Notes: generated by a model from the sequence alone, not told the origin. A stretch of DNA of 64,000 nt from Peribolospora baueri (GCA_029717555.1 JAMDHS010000038.1:124001-188000); one strand, 5' to 3'; positions 23,600-33,744 are shown, numbered from the stretch's first letter. Made by a program: numbers and translations.

Positions 23600-26107
23600 T
23601 TACCTCGCCGAGGACGTGTCCTTCGAAACCGTGGCCAGTCGCCCGACCAAAGAGTCCACACCCTGCGCCCATGCACTCCGAAACTGCTCTTCAGAAAAGT
23701 TTCGCTCCGCCGCTCTCCTCGCTCTTTCGCGCATCGCCAGCTGCCCACTCAGCGGGAGGGAAATAATTTCCCATAATGCCTCCGAGAAGGTGGGGTATTC
23801 GGTGGACGTTTGACCTGACTTCGTACCCGTTATCGCGTGGAACCCTACAGGGACGGGAGGGCACGGACGTCAAGAGGAACAGATCATCAGCGGCGCCGAA
23901 AAGATGTGTTCCTGACGCGACTCATCCAAACTTGCCTGTTGCCTCGCCATCTAACGGTACAACTATGTCGTGGAGAGGTCCACCGGATGCGTGGACTAGG
24001 GGGACCAGCCCCGCAGCCTGTTAAGCAGGCAAGCAGTTAAGGCGAAGATGTTCTCCATTCAGTACTTCGGAAAGCAGGCTACGAGCACGACTGCTCCACA
24101 TGCGACGGCGAGTAAGAAGAGCGCCCAAAATCGGGCAAAAGCATTGAGCGGCAGAAACGAAAACGCACCATGAACTCGACGATATTTATGCCAAAATGCT
24201 CGTCCACCATGGTGCTGACTCCCACACTGGCTTTGGAAAGCTCCTTCAACACCTCTGAATATGGGGCGTTCACGACGAATCGGACGTTATCCTGATCACG
24301 CGGGTCGAGGCGTTGTAAAGGAAACAGAGGGGGTTGATAAGAATATCCTCAGATTGAATTCCTTAAGACGCCCAAACCAGAGGTAGGGGGCTGAGCTCTT
24401 TTGTACGCATCGCTCACCTCAATCCCGAGTTCTCGCGCCAACGCCTTGAGCTGTTCAACTCTGCGTGCGTCCCCTTCATTTCGACTACTTCCGATGAGAA
24501 CGAGCTCGATGCCGTCCCCACCCGGCGAGCGGAGTTCGGGATGCGCTTGTAAAAGGTCGCACAACATGTGCAGTTGAGCTGGGTGCTCCTTTTCCGGCCT
24601 ATTGGAGGATAGGGGCAGGAAGGCAGATTTTGGTATAAGGAAGAAAGAGCAAAAAAACAAGGGAGGAAAGCAAGCGTCAGCCGTGAGAGCGCAGCGTACG
24701 AAATTAGCAGGGCTCCTACGAGAGCGTGCTCACCTAAACTGTGCTAAGCTGACGATGTTCCTAGGTCGATCATGCAGTGGAAAGTCTACGAGCGATTTGA
24801 CATCACAGGGCGGATAGACTATACTTGCTTCTCTTCTCCCCTCTTCTTTCCTCCTACGCGCGGCGCTCAACAGAGGAAAGGGCGTACGGGCGAGAAGAGT
24901 GTCTACATGGTTCTTCGTCCAAGACGAGTTGACCATGACGCTGTCCGCTTGAGCAAGACATTGTGCGTAGACTGCGGCGAAAAGACGATAGTACCTGCAG
25001 GGAATGGAGGACAGCGGTCATTTTCCAATCGGCCAGCTCATTCTTGACAAGACCACGTTAGTCAATCTCATATCAGACGCACTGCAGCTTTATGACGCTC
25101 CTCCAGGCACTGCTGGTCACCGCCGAATCGTTGGTGTGTCCGGATTGTCGCTGCCGAACGCGCTCGAGCATATCCGTGCTATCATGGCGGAGACAAGGGT
25201 GGCAGATGAAGCACAGTTCCATAAGTTTCCAGACAGATGTGAATCGAATGCTCACCTGATGGTGGGGTAATGCACGTAAGCGCATATCGGCGCTGACGGA
25301 GCCAGTGCTCGAACGACGGGAAACGTGAAGGCGTAACCCATGGTGTCTGTCATTCCAACGAATCTGGTCAGCAACCGTTCGAGACAGAGGTCACAATGTA
25401 ACCACAACAGTTTTCTCAGGTCGCCAACTCACCAATGAAGACGTCCGGCAGCACACCCTCGTCCCCCACCAGAGCATCCCAGGCCATGCGCATGCTCCCC
25501 AAGCTCTGCCCCAGAAGTGTGAACCGCTTCCAATAGTGATCCTCTACCAAATAGCGCGACCGAACCGGGATAAACACGATCGTAGTTTTGGAGAGATGGA
25601 TCCCGAAGCGAGCCTATGTTGAATAAGGAAGAGATGGATGATGCACAGAAATTCAGGAATACTACTTCGTAAGCTTTCGAGCGAAGGTTGGCGGCCGCAC
25701 CTCTGCTTTCTCCAGGATCTCGTCTTCAGAAGCCTCCACATCGCCGGAGTAGATAGCGCATATAGCCTCCGGGCTCACGGACTGATGGTAAGCGATGGCG
25801 GTCCAAAGGACACGTTCGCCTCCACCTCCCGCGTTGCTGGACAGGTCCCATTCGACCCAGGAGCAAGGACGTGGCGGTGTGAGCGAAATGAGGGCCGGAT
25901 TGCCCTCTGAAGGGAAATGGCTCACCAGTAGGGATGAAAGAATCCAATCAACGTTCGCTTTCCATCTTTCCGCTCGTCTATGCCCAGTCCTTCCAGCACC
26001 ACCCTTCTCCGCCTAGTGTCTCGTCGGCAGATGGAGCTCAGCAGGAGCGAATAACCTAACCGGGCGGAGAGCGCTGCAAAACAGACCAGGAGCACAAGAG
26101 GAAACAT
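23600..26107 (-). CDS. ALG11: GDP-Man:Man3GlcNAc2-PP-Dol alpha-1,2-mannosyltransferase
   Basis: IGFFHPY|CNAGGGGERVLWTAI, DTMGYAFTFP, AYVHYPTI, MVNSSWTKNH, IVYPPCD, SLAQFRPEKEH, MVDEHFGINIVEFM, AAGLVPLVHASGGPLHDIV. Confidence 0.95.
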
Positions 26108-26223
26108 GGTCCGACCAGAAGGCGGAGTGTCCTGGCGTTGTGCCCTCTCGGATGCTTGCACTGCCGCTGTCAAGGTTGAGATACAAACTACCCGGCAAGT
26201 GTCAGTAGCCACGTCGCCGTCCT

Positions 26224-26235
26224 CCTCGTCTCAGG
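26224..26235. repeat. Left target-site duplication CCTCGTCTCAGG
   Basis: Identical 12-mer at 31705-31716; directly abuts the (GATT)n tail. Confidence 0.85.
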
Positions 26236-26245
26236 TCGATTGATG

Positions 26246-26309
<64 letters not shown>
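26236..26309 (-). repeat. (AATC)n 3' tail of the LINE, (GATT)n on + strand, about 17 units
   Basis: Tetranucleotide run between the LINE 3' UTR and the left direct repeat. Confidence 0.9.
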
Positions 26310-28433
26310 AGTCAACTTAAAGTTTTTGATACAAGCCAGCCGGAGGCCTAGAGAAGACTAAAAACACGACTACCGTGGGAAAGGGAAGCTGCGGCGGATC
26401 GGGACGCGAAGGGGGAGTTCGGCATACGGAGAGAAAAGAGAGGGGACTACGCTGGCAATGTGGGGCCAAAGATAGTGGACAAGGGCGTGGTGGCAACATA
26501 ACTCATACAAACTGTGCGGAGACGCCAATGGTGAGGGGCGCAGGAGGACGCATCAGGGGAGGGATGCAGCAGGGCGGCGCAAGAGGGTTGTTGGCAGCCA
26601 GCGCTCAGGACGCCAGCGCTCAGGAGAGGCCGGGCCGACCAGAACTGCCCGGCACGGTGTCATCCGAGGAGGGTCGGCTAGCGCCTGAACCCTCGGCAAA
26701 GGACAAGGGGAAGCGTCCAGTGTCTCGAAGGAAGTGCACTGTGAGCGGGAGTGCCTTCGGGTGAAACAGGAGCGTGTGTAGGTCCGTGCTGGGAATACGG
26801 CGGGCGGATAGCTCGCTTTGGAGTCGACGTCGGTGACTCTGCCATCGGGGGCAGAACAGGAGGAAATGGGCGACCGTCTCGGGGCGCCGGGAAGAGGGGC
26901 ACTTATCGTCGTCGGCGGCCCGGACTCGAGAGAGATAGCTGCGGAGCGCGCAGTGGCCGGAGCGAAGTTGGACGATGAGCGCCGCCGCACCGCGCCCCAG
27001 GCATGAGAGAGCATCGAACGCGGCTTGGGGCGACACATCCCGGCGGACGTGGGCGTGCCACGCTCCCGCCATGCTCTCTCGCAGACCGTAGTTTGGCCCA
27101 GGGTCGTCGGCCCCATGCCGCCATTTCCGAACCATTTTAGCCGCCGACGGGGAGCGCGGGAGGGACTGGGAAGGCTGTCAACGTCCGGTCCCAGGGGGAG
27201 GAGCGGACGGCGAACTGGCAAGTGGCGGCAGCGTCGGCGATTTCGTTTTCAGGGACATCGGAGTGGCCGGGGCACCATCTCGCATGGGGGGGCGGCTAAT
27301 GCGCGTAGAACGGCCTGGTTGTCGATGTGTAGCCACACCTCGCGGGCTCGCGTGTCTCCTTCGGTCCCGTCCCAGCATTCGAGCACGATGTCCACGGCCA
27401 GAAGGACCCCTACGAGCTCCGCCTCATAGAGTGTGCGAACCGCAGCGGAGCTCAATGACGTACGATGCAGACCGTTGGGGCTACCGCCGCCGCTTCGACG
27501 ACCGACCATATTTTGAGCGTTGGCTGACGACGCCGCATCCCAGGGCGGGAGGCGGGATGGTGGCGCTGTCGGTCGGGAAAGCCGGGTGGCGACGGGGTCG
27601 GAGTCCGTAGGCGGGCGGCGGAAAGAAGGTGCGCAGGAATAAGTCGGCTTGCGTGGGGGCCGAGGAGACTGACGGTGGCTCCGATGTCGAAGCCGAGGAG
27701 TCCCGGAGAGGGAGGACGCCGGTGCTGGAGGGTGGTTCGCGGGCGTACCGCGCCGCCGACCAAACGGTCGTACTGTCGAGTCCTTCCAAAAATTTCCGCC
27801 AGTGAAAACGCTTGGCCCTGAGAATGCCTGATTTCAAGCGCCGTCGCGCTCGTCGCAGTGATTCCTTGAGGTCGCCGAAGCCGGGAGAGCTGGGGTCGGC
27901 GCGTCGGGCTGCTCGCTCACAGCGCTTGACATCCCGGACCAGCGGGTTTAATACCTCTGGGTCCCACCACCGTTTAGCATAAGGGGAGGGTTAGCCCTAG
28001 GGACGTGGGCGTGCATGGCCAGCTGGAGGGCCACCGAGAACCGGGCTGCAGCATCGTCCACTTGGCGGGCGTACCCGGTATGCCTGGCCAGTCGCGTAAG
28101 TTGTCGCGCACTGACGCCACGACTTCCTCGAGATCAGCTGCCTTCCAGTTGAGCGGGCGGGGCAGTGTGGTGTAATCGGGGGGGGGGGTTGCAGGGCCGA
28201 GCCTGAAGGCGTACGAGCGCATCGACTTCTCATACCCTCCGCGAGTGCTCTTGTTCCGAGGGGCAGAGGTGCCAGCCGGGCGACTGCTCGCACACGCAGG
28301 TATCCTGTGCCCTACGCCTCGCTGCTGGCCATACGGAGGTGGGGCACATGGCAACTAGCAATGACTGCCCAATCCGCGCCGCACGACGTCAGCAACTGGA
28401 AGACGACCCCGCCCTCTCCGACAGTCTCTACTG

Positions 28434-29210
28434 ATGCTGCCTCCCTCCTCCACAACCTTGAGTCCGACCCCCCCTCCGGCTGACACCGACCGGGTCACAT
28501 GGCTGCGTGTAAAGCAATTTAACTGCAGACGCAGCGATAGCACCCTCCACTCCCTGTTGCACGATGCGGACACGACGATGCACCACATCCTATGCTTGCA
28601 GGAGCCCTACTTCATTCCCACCACTTTCCGCCTTCCCTTCTACCGCAACTGGGAGCCGGTTCTGCCTCCCTCACCCCCTGGGGCGACCACTGACCCGTCC
28701 ACCCGTCCTAGATCGGCTATGTTGCTCAATACCCATCTCCTCTCCCCCCGCGAGATCTCCGTCTTTCCGGTTACTTCAAGGGATGTCACGGCAGTCCAGC
28801 TCTCCCCTCCCGCCGGGGCACCTGCAACATGGCGCCCATTCACTCTCGTCAATGTATACAACCCCGCCCCGGCACGACTTCTGCGCTCGGCCCTCTGGCC
28901 GACCTCCTGACCCGCGTCAGCAACCTGGGGCGGCACCCCCTGCTCGTTGTTGGGGACTTCAACCTCCACCATCCGACGTGGAACCTCAGGGGGTACACGG
29001 TGGAAGAGGCCGATGCGGATCGACTCCTGGCGCTGGTCATGGCGCACGGACTTGAGCTAGCGTCGTCGACCCGCACCCCGACCTTCTTCCGAACCAACCC
29101 TCCGGCCGCCACTTGCATCGACCTCGGCTTCGCCTCTGGTCCTGCGCGGGACAGCCTAGGACGCGCGACCCTCGGCTCCTTCTCCCATGGGTCGGATCAC
29201 ATTCCAATTC
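28434..29210 (+). pseudogene. LINE ORF2 AP-endonuclease domain, inverted relative to the element, one frameshift near 28880
   Basis: Full set of APE motifs spread across ORFs 28434-28910 and 28829-29239. Confidence 0.9.
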
Positions 29211-30265
29211 GAGCGCAGCGGGGGGCGTTCGCACAGTGAGCGGCCGTGTGGTCGAACCCACAGCAGCGGTAACACTGGCGGATTGTTGGGCGGGACTTCT
29301 GGGTGGGGTGGATCTCATGGCCGATGGCGACGTGCTGCTGGATGGCCCGGTTGGCAGCGTCTTTGCTGCCCAGAAGCACGACCAGGCTAGATCTAGGCCT
29401 GGGGTTGGGGCCGGTGGCATGGGAGGGGATGGCCCACCGGGCACGTACAACGTCCTCCCGAAGGAGCCCGTTGTCCGCGGCCAAATCGCCCAGGCACTCG
29501 GGGTCATGGGGGGCGAACGAGGTCGGAACGCCGTGCACGAAGACCGGGTACAGACGGGCCTTGAAGCGCCCATTTAAATGTCGAGAAACTTCTCCAATAC
29601 TGTTAAATGTACGATTTAATTCAGAAACCCCTCGTGCAAAGCGCCCACCCAAGAGCGGTCGGACGAGAGCCGTGTCACTGCCGCGTCCGACAAGAGGTGG
29701 ACAACGATCTCCTTGGACCTGGGTCGAACGGAGGCGGCCTTGATCCTGACGTCCTCCCCTGCCGATTCCTTCACCGCCGCACGAATACGGTTGCAAAGGA
29801 TCGTCGGCGGGAGGTCAACGAGAACAGGGGCATGGGGTTGGCGTTGAGCGAGAGTCACCGAGAACTTGGTGACCGGGGACCGGGGTTCCGAGGTCGCTGT
29901 GGCGGTCGAACGCGACGTTGTCTTGCGTTGGACGACGCGCCAGGGAGAAGGGTGACTTTGCTGGGAGGAGGGCAGCCCAGAGGATTCAGCGCCGCCGGCC
30001 AGGTCGGCCGGCACGCCCTGGGTCCTGGCGTCCATGTTGAACACGGTGTCCCGGACCTGGCACACGCGTTCATCCAGCTTGTCCAGCTTGGTCTGGATGT
30101 CGGCGGTCGGATCCGCCTTCGCCTTGTGGGCAGCGTCGACTTTGGCCATCTGGCCGGCAAGGAGGAGGTCTTGAAAGACCGTCGCATCGACGGTGATCTT
30201 CTTGGCTTTGAGTTTTCTGGCACGATCCGCCTGTGGTGTCGCGATGTTCTTCATGGAGAGGACAG
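29211..30265 (-). pseudogene. LINE ORF1 (gag-like, CCHC knuckles), frameshifted near 29620
   Basis: Coiled-coil IQTKLDKLDERV, YPVFVHGVPTSF, RSSLVVLL, RQCYRCCGFDHTAAHC. Confidence 0.88.
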
Positions 30266-31704
30266 ATCTTGATCAACCACGGCGGCGGGGAAGCGTCAAA
30301 CTTCTTCGCATCAAAGCAGAAGAAGCACTTGTAGGGCTGTAGGCGCTCCATGAAGCGCCGTGCACCACCGTGCCAACACGACTGCTCGATGGCCACAGGG
30401 TGGCCCTCAGCCAGCGTCATGTTCGTCAGAATATTCTCCGTGACGCCATTCAGCTTTAGGTCCCTGTGGCTGGTCATCATGATCAGCCTTCCGGCCTCGG
30501 GCTTGTCACCCTGGGCCCTGATCTTGGCCTGCGTGGTGGCCTTCCCACGTCCTCCCATCCTAACCAGGTGCGGTTCGACGCGCTCGCCACGTATCAGTCG
30601 TTGTCAGGCTTGCTCCGCGTCATACTGGGCAACAACGTCCGCTTCTCCGCGTGTGGAGAACCCGCGCCGCCAGTACTCCACCCCTGCAAAGCGGTCGCCG
30701 TAGAAGCGAACGTCCTGCAGGTCGGCGATCGTTGGGAAGTCAACGCCGTCCGTAAAGGAGCACAGGCCAGCAACATTGTGCGGCTTGAGTAATGAGCTCA
30801 TAGAACTCATGGCGCATTGGGATGACAGCGCGGTTGAACTGATCAAGATGATTCAGCTCAACTAGGGAGTTTGGCTTGACAAAGATATGGTCTGCCGAGA
30901 AGGTGCCCTCAAAGTACGAAGAGTCTGAGTGATTTGCTTCTGTTTCGGAATCGGAAGAGAGGAAGGAAAGGCGGTCGCCCTCTTCTTCTGACGATGCGGT
31001 TCGAGACGGCCGTGGACGGCTAGCGGGTGCGACAGACCGAACGGCCGGTCGTGGGCGGTGCCGGCAAAAGACGGCTGTGCTTCTTCTGGTCTGAGGCACC
31101 TTCGGGGACGAGGGAGGCAGACTCGAACCATCCCCCCGTGCTCGTCCAAGCTGCGTTGGACGTATTAAACGTCGAAGGAACCCGACTCCAACCTCAACCT
31201 AAACCGTGCTTCAGATCCTCCGTCCCCTCTCTTGTCGTCGTGGGCGTCCAGGCTGAATCCCGGAAAGGGCGAGATCGCGTAGTACGCTTTGAAGACCTCG
31301 CACGCCTCCGCGATAAGCAATGTCTTCGACATCCCACGGAGGCACGCCTGCCGACCCATGAACTCCATCCGGTGGAAGCGTGCGTAGAAAGCGGCTTCTT
31401 CAGCCACACTGCGTGCAGTGGCTCCCACACGGCGCTGTCCCCTGCGGCGGCGCGTCGACACCGAACCCTCCGGCATCTCCTCCTCTGGCGTAATGGTGTT
31501 GTCGAACGCATGATCCGAGCTGTAGTCGGAAAAGTGGTGTAGGCGGACATCGTGGAGGTCGCCAGCTCGGACCAGGTGGTTGCGTTCAGCCAGGCTGTCG
31601 TTGGACAGGCGAAAGCCTTGCCCTTGTCTTGATCAGCATTCCTCCCCAAGTGCTTGCGAGTCGGCACTAGTTTTGCGGGGGAGAACCTTTTGGCTTGTTT
31701 CTTG
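30266..31704 (-). pseudogene. Endogenous viral element: 5' part of a dsRNA mycovirus RNA-dependent RNA polymerase gene (Curvulaviridae/Durnavirales-like)
   Basis: Joined frames read ...DRFAGVEYWRRGFSTRGEAD...EQA*QRLIRGERVEPHLVRMGGRGK...AGRLIMMTSHRDLKLNG...SCWHGGARRF...FFCFDAKKFDASPPPWLIKI. GRLI matches motif F and DAKKFD is motif A (DxxxxD). No introns; stops and frameshifts present. Support is strong for 30266-30930 and weaker for 30930-31704. Confidence 0.82.
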
Positions 31705-31716
31705 CCTCGTCTCAGG
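31705..31716. repeat. Right target-site duplication CCTCGTCTCAGG
   Basis: Identical to 26224-26235. Confidence 0.85.
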
Positions 31717-31826
31717 CACATGTCAGCAGATGCACGCGCCGCCGCAGTCGACCCCGTGCGAGTCCGATCCGGACATTCACCTGCATTCTTCCTTCCACCA
31801 TCATCGTAGCTGCATCTTGATTCATC

Positions 31827-33744
<1,918 letters not shown>

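Follow-up and report, generated by a model that had tools for sequence, protein, structure and literature searches.

How does an RNA virus that makes no DNA come to lie in a fungal chromosome? The answer is usually argued from circumstantial evidence, for example, from retroelements that lie nearby. Here, we consider a 64,000-nucleotide (nt) stretch of DNA from Peribolospora baueri (GCA_029717555.1 JAMDHS010000038.1:124001-188000), referred to below as the window, and an insert at positions 26224 to 31716 in which part of the gene for an RNA-dependent RNA polymerase (RdRp) from a Curvulaviridae-like mycovirus is joined to the remains of a long interspersed nuclear element (LINE). A reading made from the sequence alone had proposed that a LINE reverse transcriptase (RT) began on LINE RNA and jumped to the viral RNA. 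Our results indicate that the locus is probably the fossil of one target-primed reverse transcription that passed from LINE RNA to viral RNA by template switch. A single LINE-mediated event is well supported, and template switching by the LINE RT is the likeliest route by which the two sequences were joined.

One direct repeat encloses the LINE and the viral sequence

Four sequencing runs carry the stretch. Two of them (X1 and X2; share, 0.97) come from one organism, here called organism A, and may be the source reads of the assembly. The other two (X3 and X4; shares, 0.39 and 0.37) come from a relative, organism B. Evidence from the runs consists of Logan contigs aligned at 80% likeness, with copy numbers taken from contig depth.

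The outer limits of the insert are marked by two copies of the 12-mer CCTCGTCTCAGG:

26224..26235, no strand: repeat read as the target-site duplication on the LINE-tail side; exact 12-mer, 116 nt upstream of the ALG11-like ATG (26108-26106)
31705..31716, no strand: repeat read as the target-site duplication on the viral 5' side; exact 12-mer, bridged to the right flank by a contig in four of four runs

No third exact copy of CCTCGTCTCAGG occurs in the window, and the sequence-only reading was right that the pair encloses both parts. When one mismatch is tolerated, there are four matches, the additional two being at 2380 and 4734. The repeat belongs to the 10- to 20-bp class of short direct repeats, but repeats of this size are common: the window holds 150 exact direct repeats of at least 12 nt at a spacing of 200 to 10000 nt, many of them of low complexity. 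The weight of the pair therefore rests on its position and not on its existence. The (GATT)18 array (26238-26309) ends 2 nt away from the copy at 26224. The copy at 31705 is 3 nt away from the motif GAAAC and 8 nt away from AAGCCA, two motifs that are enriched near the 5' termini of contigs from related viruses. Based on the window background of ~2.4e-7 exact repeats per position pair, we estimate the chance that a second copy of the 12-mer would fall near (~100 to 300 nt) the expected viral 5' end to be roughly 1e-4 or less. A repeat search of the locus returned no direct repeats that bracket the LINE alone, the viral part alone, or module X alone, the last being a 347-nt segment within the viral part that is described below.

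Within the repeats, the LINE and the viral part are joined directly and in the same sense, on the minus strand, at 30262/30263, a position that can be placed to ~3 nt. A contig from organism A covers this join without a single difference (29716-30938). A second contig (31210-33716) starts within the viral part and continues past the repeat into flanking sequence.

The viral part runs from about the 5' end of the viral RNA to just past motif A

Three segments of the insert are viral, or putatively so:

30263..30913, minus strand: RdRp core, Curvulaviridae-like; ends 9 codons past motif A; TGA at 30606-30604 and frameshift near 30780
31240..31593, minus strand: RdRp N-terminal region, recognized by hhalign and by weak collinear tblastn matches; an in-frame TAA stands further on, in the same phase, at 31167-31165
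31594..31704, minus strand: putative viral 5' untranslated region (UTR) of ~110 nt; contains GAAAC (31701-31697) and AAGCCA (31696-31691)

The identity of the core is clear from a phmmer search with the minus-strand translation of 30852-30266, in which the single in-frame TGA was read as X. There were 38 proteins that matched at an E value of ≤0.001, the top match (E = 5e-53; 52% identity) covering residues 144 to 313 of a 579-amino-acid (aa) protein, and the Pfam domain RdRP_1 was found in all 12 of the matches that were scanned. The named relatives include the RdRps of Lentinula edodes bipartite virus 1, Lactarius rufus RNA virus 1, and Lactarius tabidus RNA virus 1; in the NCBI taxonomy, the Lactarius virus belongs to the Curvulaviridae, order Durnavirales. 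Genome-borne copies from Apophysomyces, Phycomyces, and Mortierella were also among the matches. A tree of 50 rows groups the element with free 2-kb viral contigs and the Lentinula virus (clade support, 93/90); sister to this group (95/89) are the genome-borne copies from Phycomyces and from Apophysomyces. Furthermore, 27 of 29 open reading frames (ORFs) from viral contigs match the window. Similarity to the RdRps of exogenous members, together with continuity with host chromosomal genes, characterizes the sequence as an endogenous viral element. In passing, large contigs of Apophysomyces (212 kb), Phycomyces (1.8 Mb), and Mortierella (3.4 Mb) carry near-full-length RdRp genes from this viral group, whose products are labeled hypothetical proteins (P0006, P0007, P0012, and P0054); the Mortierella product, at 1286 aa, is possibly a fusion.

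Toward the LINE, viral homology stops abruptly. Its last peptide, PWLIKI, lies 9 codons beyond the second Asp of motif A (DAKKFDAS), and the tblastn endpoints of most viral queries fall at 30262 to 30271. Motif B and the GDD of motif C, whose columns are invariant among homologues, have no counterpart in the window, and the viral 3' UTR is absent from it as well. With some queries, the homology seemed to extend in the same frame to ~30094. This extension was rejected, given that identity collapses after PWLIKI and that paralogous LINE copies align to those very nucleotides.

At the other end, evidence from coding sequence, motifs, and length converges on the viral 5' terminus. The segment 31479-31258 aligned with the N termini of 14 relatives in hhalign (probability, 97.2%; E = 4.2e-11), which together with the phmmer results bears out the proposal of an RdRp-like sequence on the minus strand. 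Weaker, collinear tblastn matches extend to 31593, where the Met of one viral contig, L014, aligns with a CTG (31593-31591). Because the ORFs of relatives start at nt 39 to 161 of their contigs, the remaining 110 nt (31704-31594) fit a 5' UTR. Two motifs in this segment recur among the 22 related contigs that have a 5' UTR: five contigs have GAAA[CT] within their first 12 nt (48 of 3478 background windows), and four have AAGCCA within their first 40 nt (7 of 1037 in the background). These motifs may be conserved terminal signals of the viral segment RNA1. Among contigs of this bipartite-virus group, the former stands at or near the 5' terminus in L002, L006, L010, L014, and L025, and the latter stands at nt 11 to 24 in L011, L012, L017, and L027. 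As a check on length, we used L002, the closest full viral contig, as a reference. From the repeat to the last viral codon, with module X excluded, the insert measures 1090 to 1093 nt, and the same residue of L002 is 1087 nt from its 5' end. The viral copy thus seems to reach the viral 5' terminus, so that both limits suggested from the sequence alone, just past motif A and about the viral 5' end, held up.

The element is without polymerase function, since motifs B and C are absent and the frame is broken. An active RdRP_1 protein would have an open frame with motifs A, B, and C; here, only motif A is present, and in addition to the TGA and TAA listed above, the phase changes near 31135 and 30780. 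Several other searches gave no viral match above chance. Pfam detected no RdRp in 13 pieces of the window, the LINE endonuclease being the sole match; the RdRp fragment had only chance matches in a PDB sequence search (E = 0.2 to 0.3); the viral N terminus found nothing in a word-indexed search of longer proteins; and a search of IMG/VR with a single fragment gave one locus at chance level (L001; 20% identity).

The LINE part is 5' truncated, rearranged, and dead

From the tail upward, the remainder of the insert can be divided as follows:

26238..26309, minus strand: (AATC)18 microsatellite tail, (GATT)18 on the plus strand; Tandem Repeats Finder, period 4, 18 copies, 97% matches
26310..26748, minus strand: LINE 3' UTR, bounded by the tail and by the last ORF2 match; one X3 contig runs into it from the left flank
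26749..27321, minus strand: C-terminal region of ORF2, with stops; tblastn with the related ORF2 protein P0055, residues 917-1106, E = 1.7e-6
27322..27612, minus strand: remnant between the ORF2 linker and C terminus, RNase H-like by eye only; the RT domain expected here is absent
27613..27978, minus strand: ORF2 linker (endonuclease to RT); tblastn with P0055, residues 315-431, E = 0.023, and with P0056, residues 320-419
28178..28188, minus strand: run of 11 C; lower breakpoint of the inverted block and an arm of inverted repeat I11
28217..29208, plus strand: inverted LINE block, with C-terminal zinc knuckles of ORF1 (28207-28434) and an apurinic-type endonuclease (28503-29218)
29209..30262, minus strand: 5'-truncated LINE ORF1, with coiled-coil-like and RRM-like parts and the first CCHC knuckle

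The tail, the endonuclease, the ORF2 matches, and the paralogues identify this part as the LINE with an (AATC)n tail that had been recognized from the sequence alone. The order of parts given then was also correct, but the unit is less clean than was supposed, since the inverted endonuclease block, the absence of the RT, and module X had been missed. In P0055, the endonuclease occupies residues 21 to 234 and RVT_1 occupies residues 522 to 775. In the window, the same protein matches as three pieces: residues 6 to 237 on the plus strand (28503-29218), residues 315 to 431 on the minus strand (27978-27613), and residues 917 to 1106 on the minus strand (27321-26749). Accordingly, ~1 kb of the LINE, comprising the zinc knuckles of ORF1 and the endonuclease (Pfam Exo_endo_phos_2 on the plus strand, 1.1e-13; zf-CCHC_6 weak, 0.0047), is inverted relative to the rest, and 291 nt stand in place of the ~1.4 kb expected of the RT domain. 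An autonomous element has endonuclease and RT in one ORF2, a combination that is not found here, and this copy of the LINE is dead. The linker (27613-27978) is at single-copy depth in organism A and uncovered in organism B.

A contig from organism A (26318-29332) spans the inversion. The joint between opposite strands that connects 28217 with 29209 is present in one contig each of X1, X2, and X3, as would come from a copy in normal order. The repeat search of the locus found no inverted repeats that would explain the inversion. Later decay would account for the inverted endonuclease block, the missing RT, and the stop codons.

In the ORF1 part, a word-indexed search of proteins of near length returned no homologue and Pfam gave no match. 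Its identification as LINE instead comes from paralogous DNA copies. A paralogue in organism A, on contigs of 6949 and 23288 nt, aligns over 29716-29969 (31 differences) and 30093-30262 (18 differences, 6 gaps). At 30262, the alignment stops and the contig runs on with unlike sequence; loose ends of the same kind are seen in X3 and X4. LINE homology therefore begins exactly where viral homology ends, and other copies of the LINE are nonviral at that point. These results agree with two expectations drawn from the sequence alone, namely, that a 5'-truncated LINE and plus-sense viral sequence are joined with a common sense and that other copies of the LINE lack the viral part. As a separate matter, ORF1 of this copy carries a private AT-rich insert of 56 nt (29570-29625), which other copies skip; the corresponding joint, 29569 to 29626, is present in four of four runs.

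The viral core is single copy, and a related organism carries both insert ends

In organism A, the viral core is single copy, with a depth of 128.8 compared to 115.5 and 121.4 in the flanks. In organism B, the left flank (1922 nt, with 33 differences and 10 gap letters) and the LINE 3' UTR (26318-26702) stand on one X3 contig, connected via a shorter tail, and one contig each from X3 and X4 covers 31210-33716 with 53 to 54 differences and 28 to 29 gap letters. Both ends of the insert thus lie at the same site in organism B, as expected for a vertically inherited sequence, and the insert predates the split between organisms A and B (~2% divergence).

The interior of the insert differs between the two organisms. 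In X3, 27023-27615 is linked via ~1.07 kb of unlike letters to 29016-28280, in an orientation opposite to that of organism A; in X4, the same link runs via ~0.6 kb of unlike letters to 28747-28280. Assuming that the contig is orthologous, this suggests that the inversion, the loss of the RT, and part of the LINE's decay came later and are specific to organism A. The viral N-terminal coding region has also changed in a minor way: relative to the window, a base is missing at 31470 in organism B and an extra base follows 31534, a pair of compensating indels 64 nt apart.

Probable formation of the insert in one LINE-mediated event

The architecture can be read from end to end. A tail beside one repeat, a 5'-truncated LINE, a seamless, same-sense join to a different RNA that was copied up to its 5' end, and then the second repeat are what one target-primed event would leave behind, and the layout matches that of documented fungal chimeras, which is why we read the locus as a chimeric retrocopy made by a LINE. 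In this scenario, the LINE endonuclease would have made a nick in the short promoter region that separates an ALG11-like gene from an Msp1-like AAA gene. Priming on the (AATC)n tail of LINE RNA would have started reverse transcription, which would have run up into ORF1. From there, synthesis would have continued, unbroken and with its sense unchanged, along the RNA1 plus strand of a Curvulaviridae-like, bipartite double-stranded RNA (dsRNA) mycovirus, entering the viral RNA 9 codons past motif A and copying to, or to within ~3 nt of, its 5' end. Second-strand synthesis would then have yielded the 12-bp target-site duplication. We infer both the origin of the whole unit in one event and the joining of its parts by template switch.

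A number of observations weigh against this scenario. First, an empty site was not found among the four runs of the two organisms, both of which carry the insert ends, so the duplication is deduced from one allele. Second, in organism B, cover over 30247-30880 is sparse (depth, 17 to 30 versus 70 to 100), such that the evidence from this organism concerns the two insert ends and not the viral core; depth is 0 over 27711-28027, and such holes are not evidence of absence. Third, the 5' partner lacks ~40% at its 3' end, whereas a classical chimera would include a full-length RNA copy. Fourth, the LINE is not collinear today, having an inverted block and no RT, a state that calls for either several rearrangements after insertion or an origin of greater complexity. 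Fifth, module X means that the viral part is no simple copy of a typical RNA1. Finally, clear microhomology was not seen at the join itself. On a related note, the 7-mer GTTGATC, which consists of the paralogues' last letters and the first two LINE letters, recurs in the viral part at 30273-30279, 10 nt from the join; this match could be due to chance or could be a trace of template pairing.

The proposal that the RT jumped from LINE RNA to viral RNA therefore stands in part. One target-primed event is supported, and template switch is the likeliest way in which the parts were joined, but the same DNA would result if the two RNAs had been connected beforehand. A chimeric RNA could have been formed by copy-choice of the viral RdRp onto a LINE transcript, by RNA ligation, or by trans-splicing, and then copied from the LINE tail; the product would be identical in having one sense, one duplication, and a 3' tail. 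RNA ligation is discussed as an alternative for U6/L1 chimeras (bioRxiv 10.1101/2025.02.02.635956), and the in-frame position of module X suggests that RNA recombination had already brought in or expanded sequence in this virus lineage. Nevertheless, there is no direct evidence of a hybrid RNA (a motif resembling a splice site at 30262 was neither sought nor noticed), and the documented route for fungal chimeras is template switching by the LINE RT (PMC2104539). For these reasons, we regard a preformed chimeric RNA as unlikely.

Somewhat less probable still is a 5' transduction, in which an older viral insert was hit by a 5'-truncated LINE, a joint read-through transcript was retrotransposed in trans, and the parent was later lost. 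Such a history would also place one duplication around two parts of the same sense, and 5' transduction chimeras of L1 that include pieces of mRNA have been described (bioRxiv 10.1101/2025.02.02.635956). Yet, the viral core is single copy in organism A, where no parent was seen, and the viral 5' motifs and length at the repeat leave no space for a transduced host leader. Moreover, mobilization in trans of a dead, truncated LINE is rare.

We consider it very improbable that the insert is the product of two or more separate events, that is, a LINE insertion with viral complementary DNA (cDNA) captured alongside it, for example, at a double-strand break, and a 12-mer pair that arose by chance. 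The 150 pairs of this class within 10 kb of each other in the window would seem to favor coincidence, as would the extent to which the locus has clearly been rearranged since. The cDNA could perhaps have been made by the viral polymerase, since RdRps of partitiviruses are reported to have RT activity (PMC8557412). However, the copies stand at both outer ends, within 2 to 3 nt of the tail and of the viral motifs, for which the chance estimate was given above; moreover, neither part has a repeat pair of its own, and the join is seamless and in one sense. Finally, an assembly chimera or contamination, in which viral cDNA or RNA reads were misjoined to a LINE, carries a general risk only, heightened by X1 and X2 possibly being the assembly's own reads, and can practically be dismissed because independently built Logan contigs span both junctions with 0 differences, the viral N terminus with the right flank and the LINE 3' end with the left flank are also joined in organism B at ~2% divergence, and the viral frame has stops and shifts like those of genomic fossils.

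Relation to known chimeras and viral fossils

Chimeric retroelements made by fungal LINEs are known from Magnaporthe, in which 33 elements with direct repeats of 10 to 20 bp are described and ascribed to template switching (PMC2104539). MINE and related bipartite and tripartite chimeras of Magnaporthe grisea, in which WEIRD RNA is joined to a 5'-truncated MGL LINE, and the U6/L1 chimeras of mammals have the same layout as the locus studied here (PMC2104539; bioRxiv 10.1101/2025.02.02.635956). As described there, the 3' part of a truncated LINE with a microsatellite or A-rich tail is preceded on its 5' side by another RNA in the same sense, and repeats flank the whole; the 3' part of our insert is likewise a 5'-truncated LINE. 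Their 5' partner is a full-length cellular RNA, while ours comes from an RNA virus, being its genome or mRNA strand, and is truncated at its 3' end. In the main text of a survey of L1 chimeras, the words "virus" and "viral" occur 0 times (bioRxiv 10.1101/2025.02.02.635956).

Fossils of this viral group are not new. Endogenous elements that resemble Curvulaviridae RdRps have already been described in Mortierellaceae (PMC12548735), and two elements from Mucoromycota are sister to the clade of the element studied here. The Mucoromycota elements are near-full-length ORFs with a mean of 646 aa (PMC12548735), while ours is an N-terminal half, broken and fused to a retroelement; in the passages of that report that deal with these elements, a mechanism of integration is not given. 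The new aspect of our locus is therefore the physical link between a viral fossil and a retroelement. In mammals, bornavirus-like and filovirus-like elements are nonretroviral RNA virus sequences that were integrated by LINE-1 and are recognized by their target-site duplications. Their templates were viral mRNAs with poly(A) of their own, and no LINE sequence is attached. Compared to these elements, the present case has the LINE attached, a fungal host, and a dsRNA virus without a poly(A)-dependent route. Hybrids formed by copy-choice are also known between lymphocytic choriomeningitis virus and the intracisternal A particle (LCMV-IAP) in mouse cells and between insect viral DNA and long terminal repeat (LTR) retrotransposons, but these involve LTR elements and are mostly episomal or somatic DNA. 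Ours is a germline, non-LTR, target-primed insert with a duplication. A literature search, from which subscription journals were mostly outside, found no report of a LINE-RNA virus chimera in a fungus.

Viral sequence that is still attached to a retroelement within one duplication names the class of enzyme responsible, a non-LTR RT acting by target priming, and also the template, a plus strand copied to its 5' end. It would extend the LINE chimeras of fungi and mammals from cellular RNAs to viral RNA. It also provides a concrete pair for a retrotransposition assay, this LINE family and a curvulavirus.

A 347-nt module inside the viral part

Between the core and the N-terminal region of the RdRp lies the segment that sets this viral part apart from its relatives:

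30893..31239, minus strand: module X, Ser/Pro/Arg-rich, 347 nt; absent from relatives and present in a second genomic copy

The blocks on either side of module X are directly adjacent in 14 of 14 aligned relatives. In organism A, its depth is about twofold (a 182-nt contig at 239), and the likeness of the second copy breaks off at 30893 and 31239, beyond which unlike sequence follows on both sides. Both the second copy and organism B carry letters other than those of the window at 31102, 31166, and 31169, as well as an extra base in the C6 run at 31132-31137. With those letters, by our reading of the frames, the TAA disappears and phase 0 becomes phase 1, so that module X would be 348 nt long, with 116 open codons in frame with both viral blocks. 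We estimate that a random insert would be open and in frame like this with a chance of ~1 in 18 or less. An origin from a tRNA or a short interspersed nuclear element (SINE), hinted at by the T-arm-like GGTTCGAGTC, was rejected after ARAGORN and Rfam were negative. A protein atlas search with the module gave no usable match.

Module X may be a native, lineage-specific viral linker with a partial second copy elsewhere. Alternatively, a living virus may have taken up a host coding segment in frame before a LINE wrote the virus back into the host, in which case the second copy would be the donor gene. We hold this to be a doubtful reading, but if it is true, the locus records a round trip from host to virus to host.

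Genomic surroundings

Upstream of the ALG11-like gene, 116 nt separate its ATG from the insert, which is on the same strand as that gene and ~0.4 kb from the divergent AAA gene. The flanking genes carry ALG11_N on one side and AAA and AAA_lid_3 on the other. Among single-stretch PDB matches of the AAA gene is Msp1, which fits the Msp1-like name without being decisive. A 5.5-kb insert has been retained in two lineages within a short divergent promoter region (26106-26235 and 31717-32150), and read-through from the LINE into ALG11 is conceivable. The region next to ALG11 has itself changed: over 26146-26317, X3 has 74 letters, in that the flank on the ALG11 side lacks 54 nt (26146-26199) and the tail seems shorter by ~11 units, which points to variation between lineages in both the microsatellite tail and the 5' region of ALG11.

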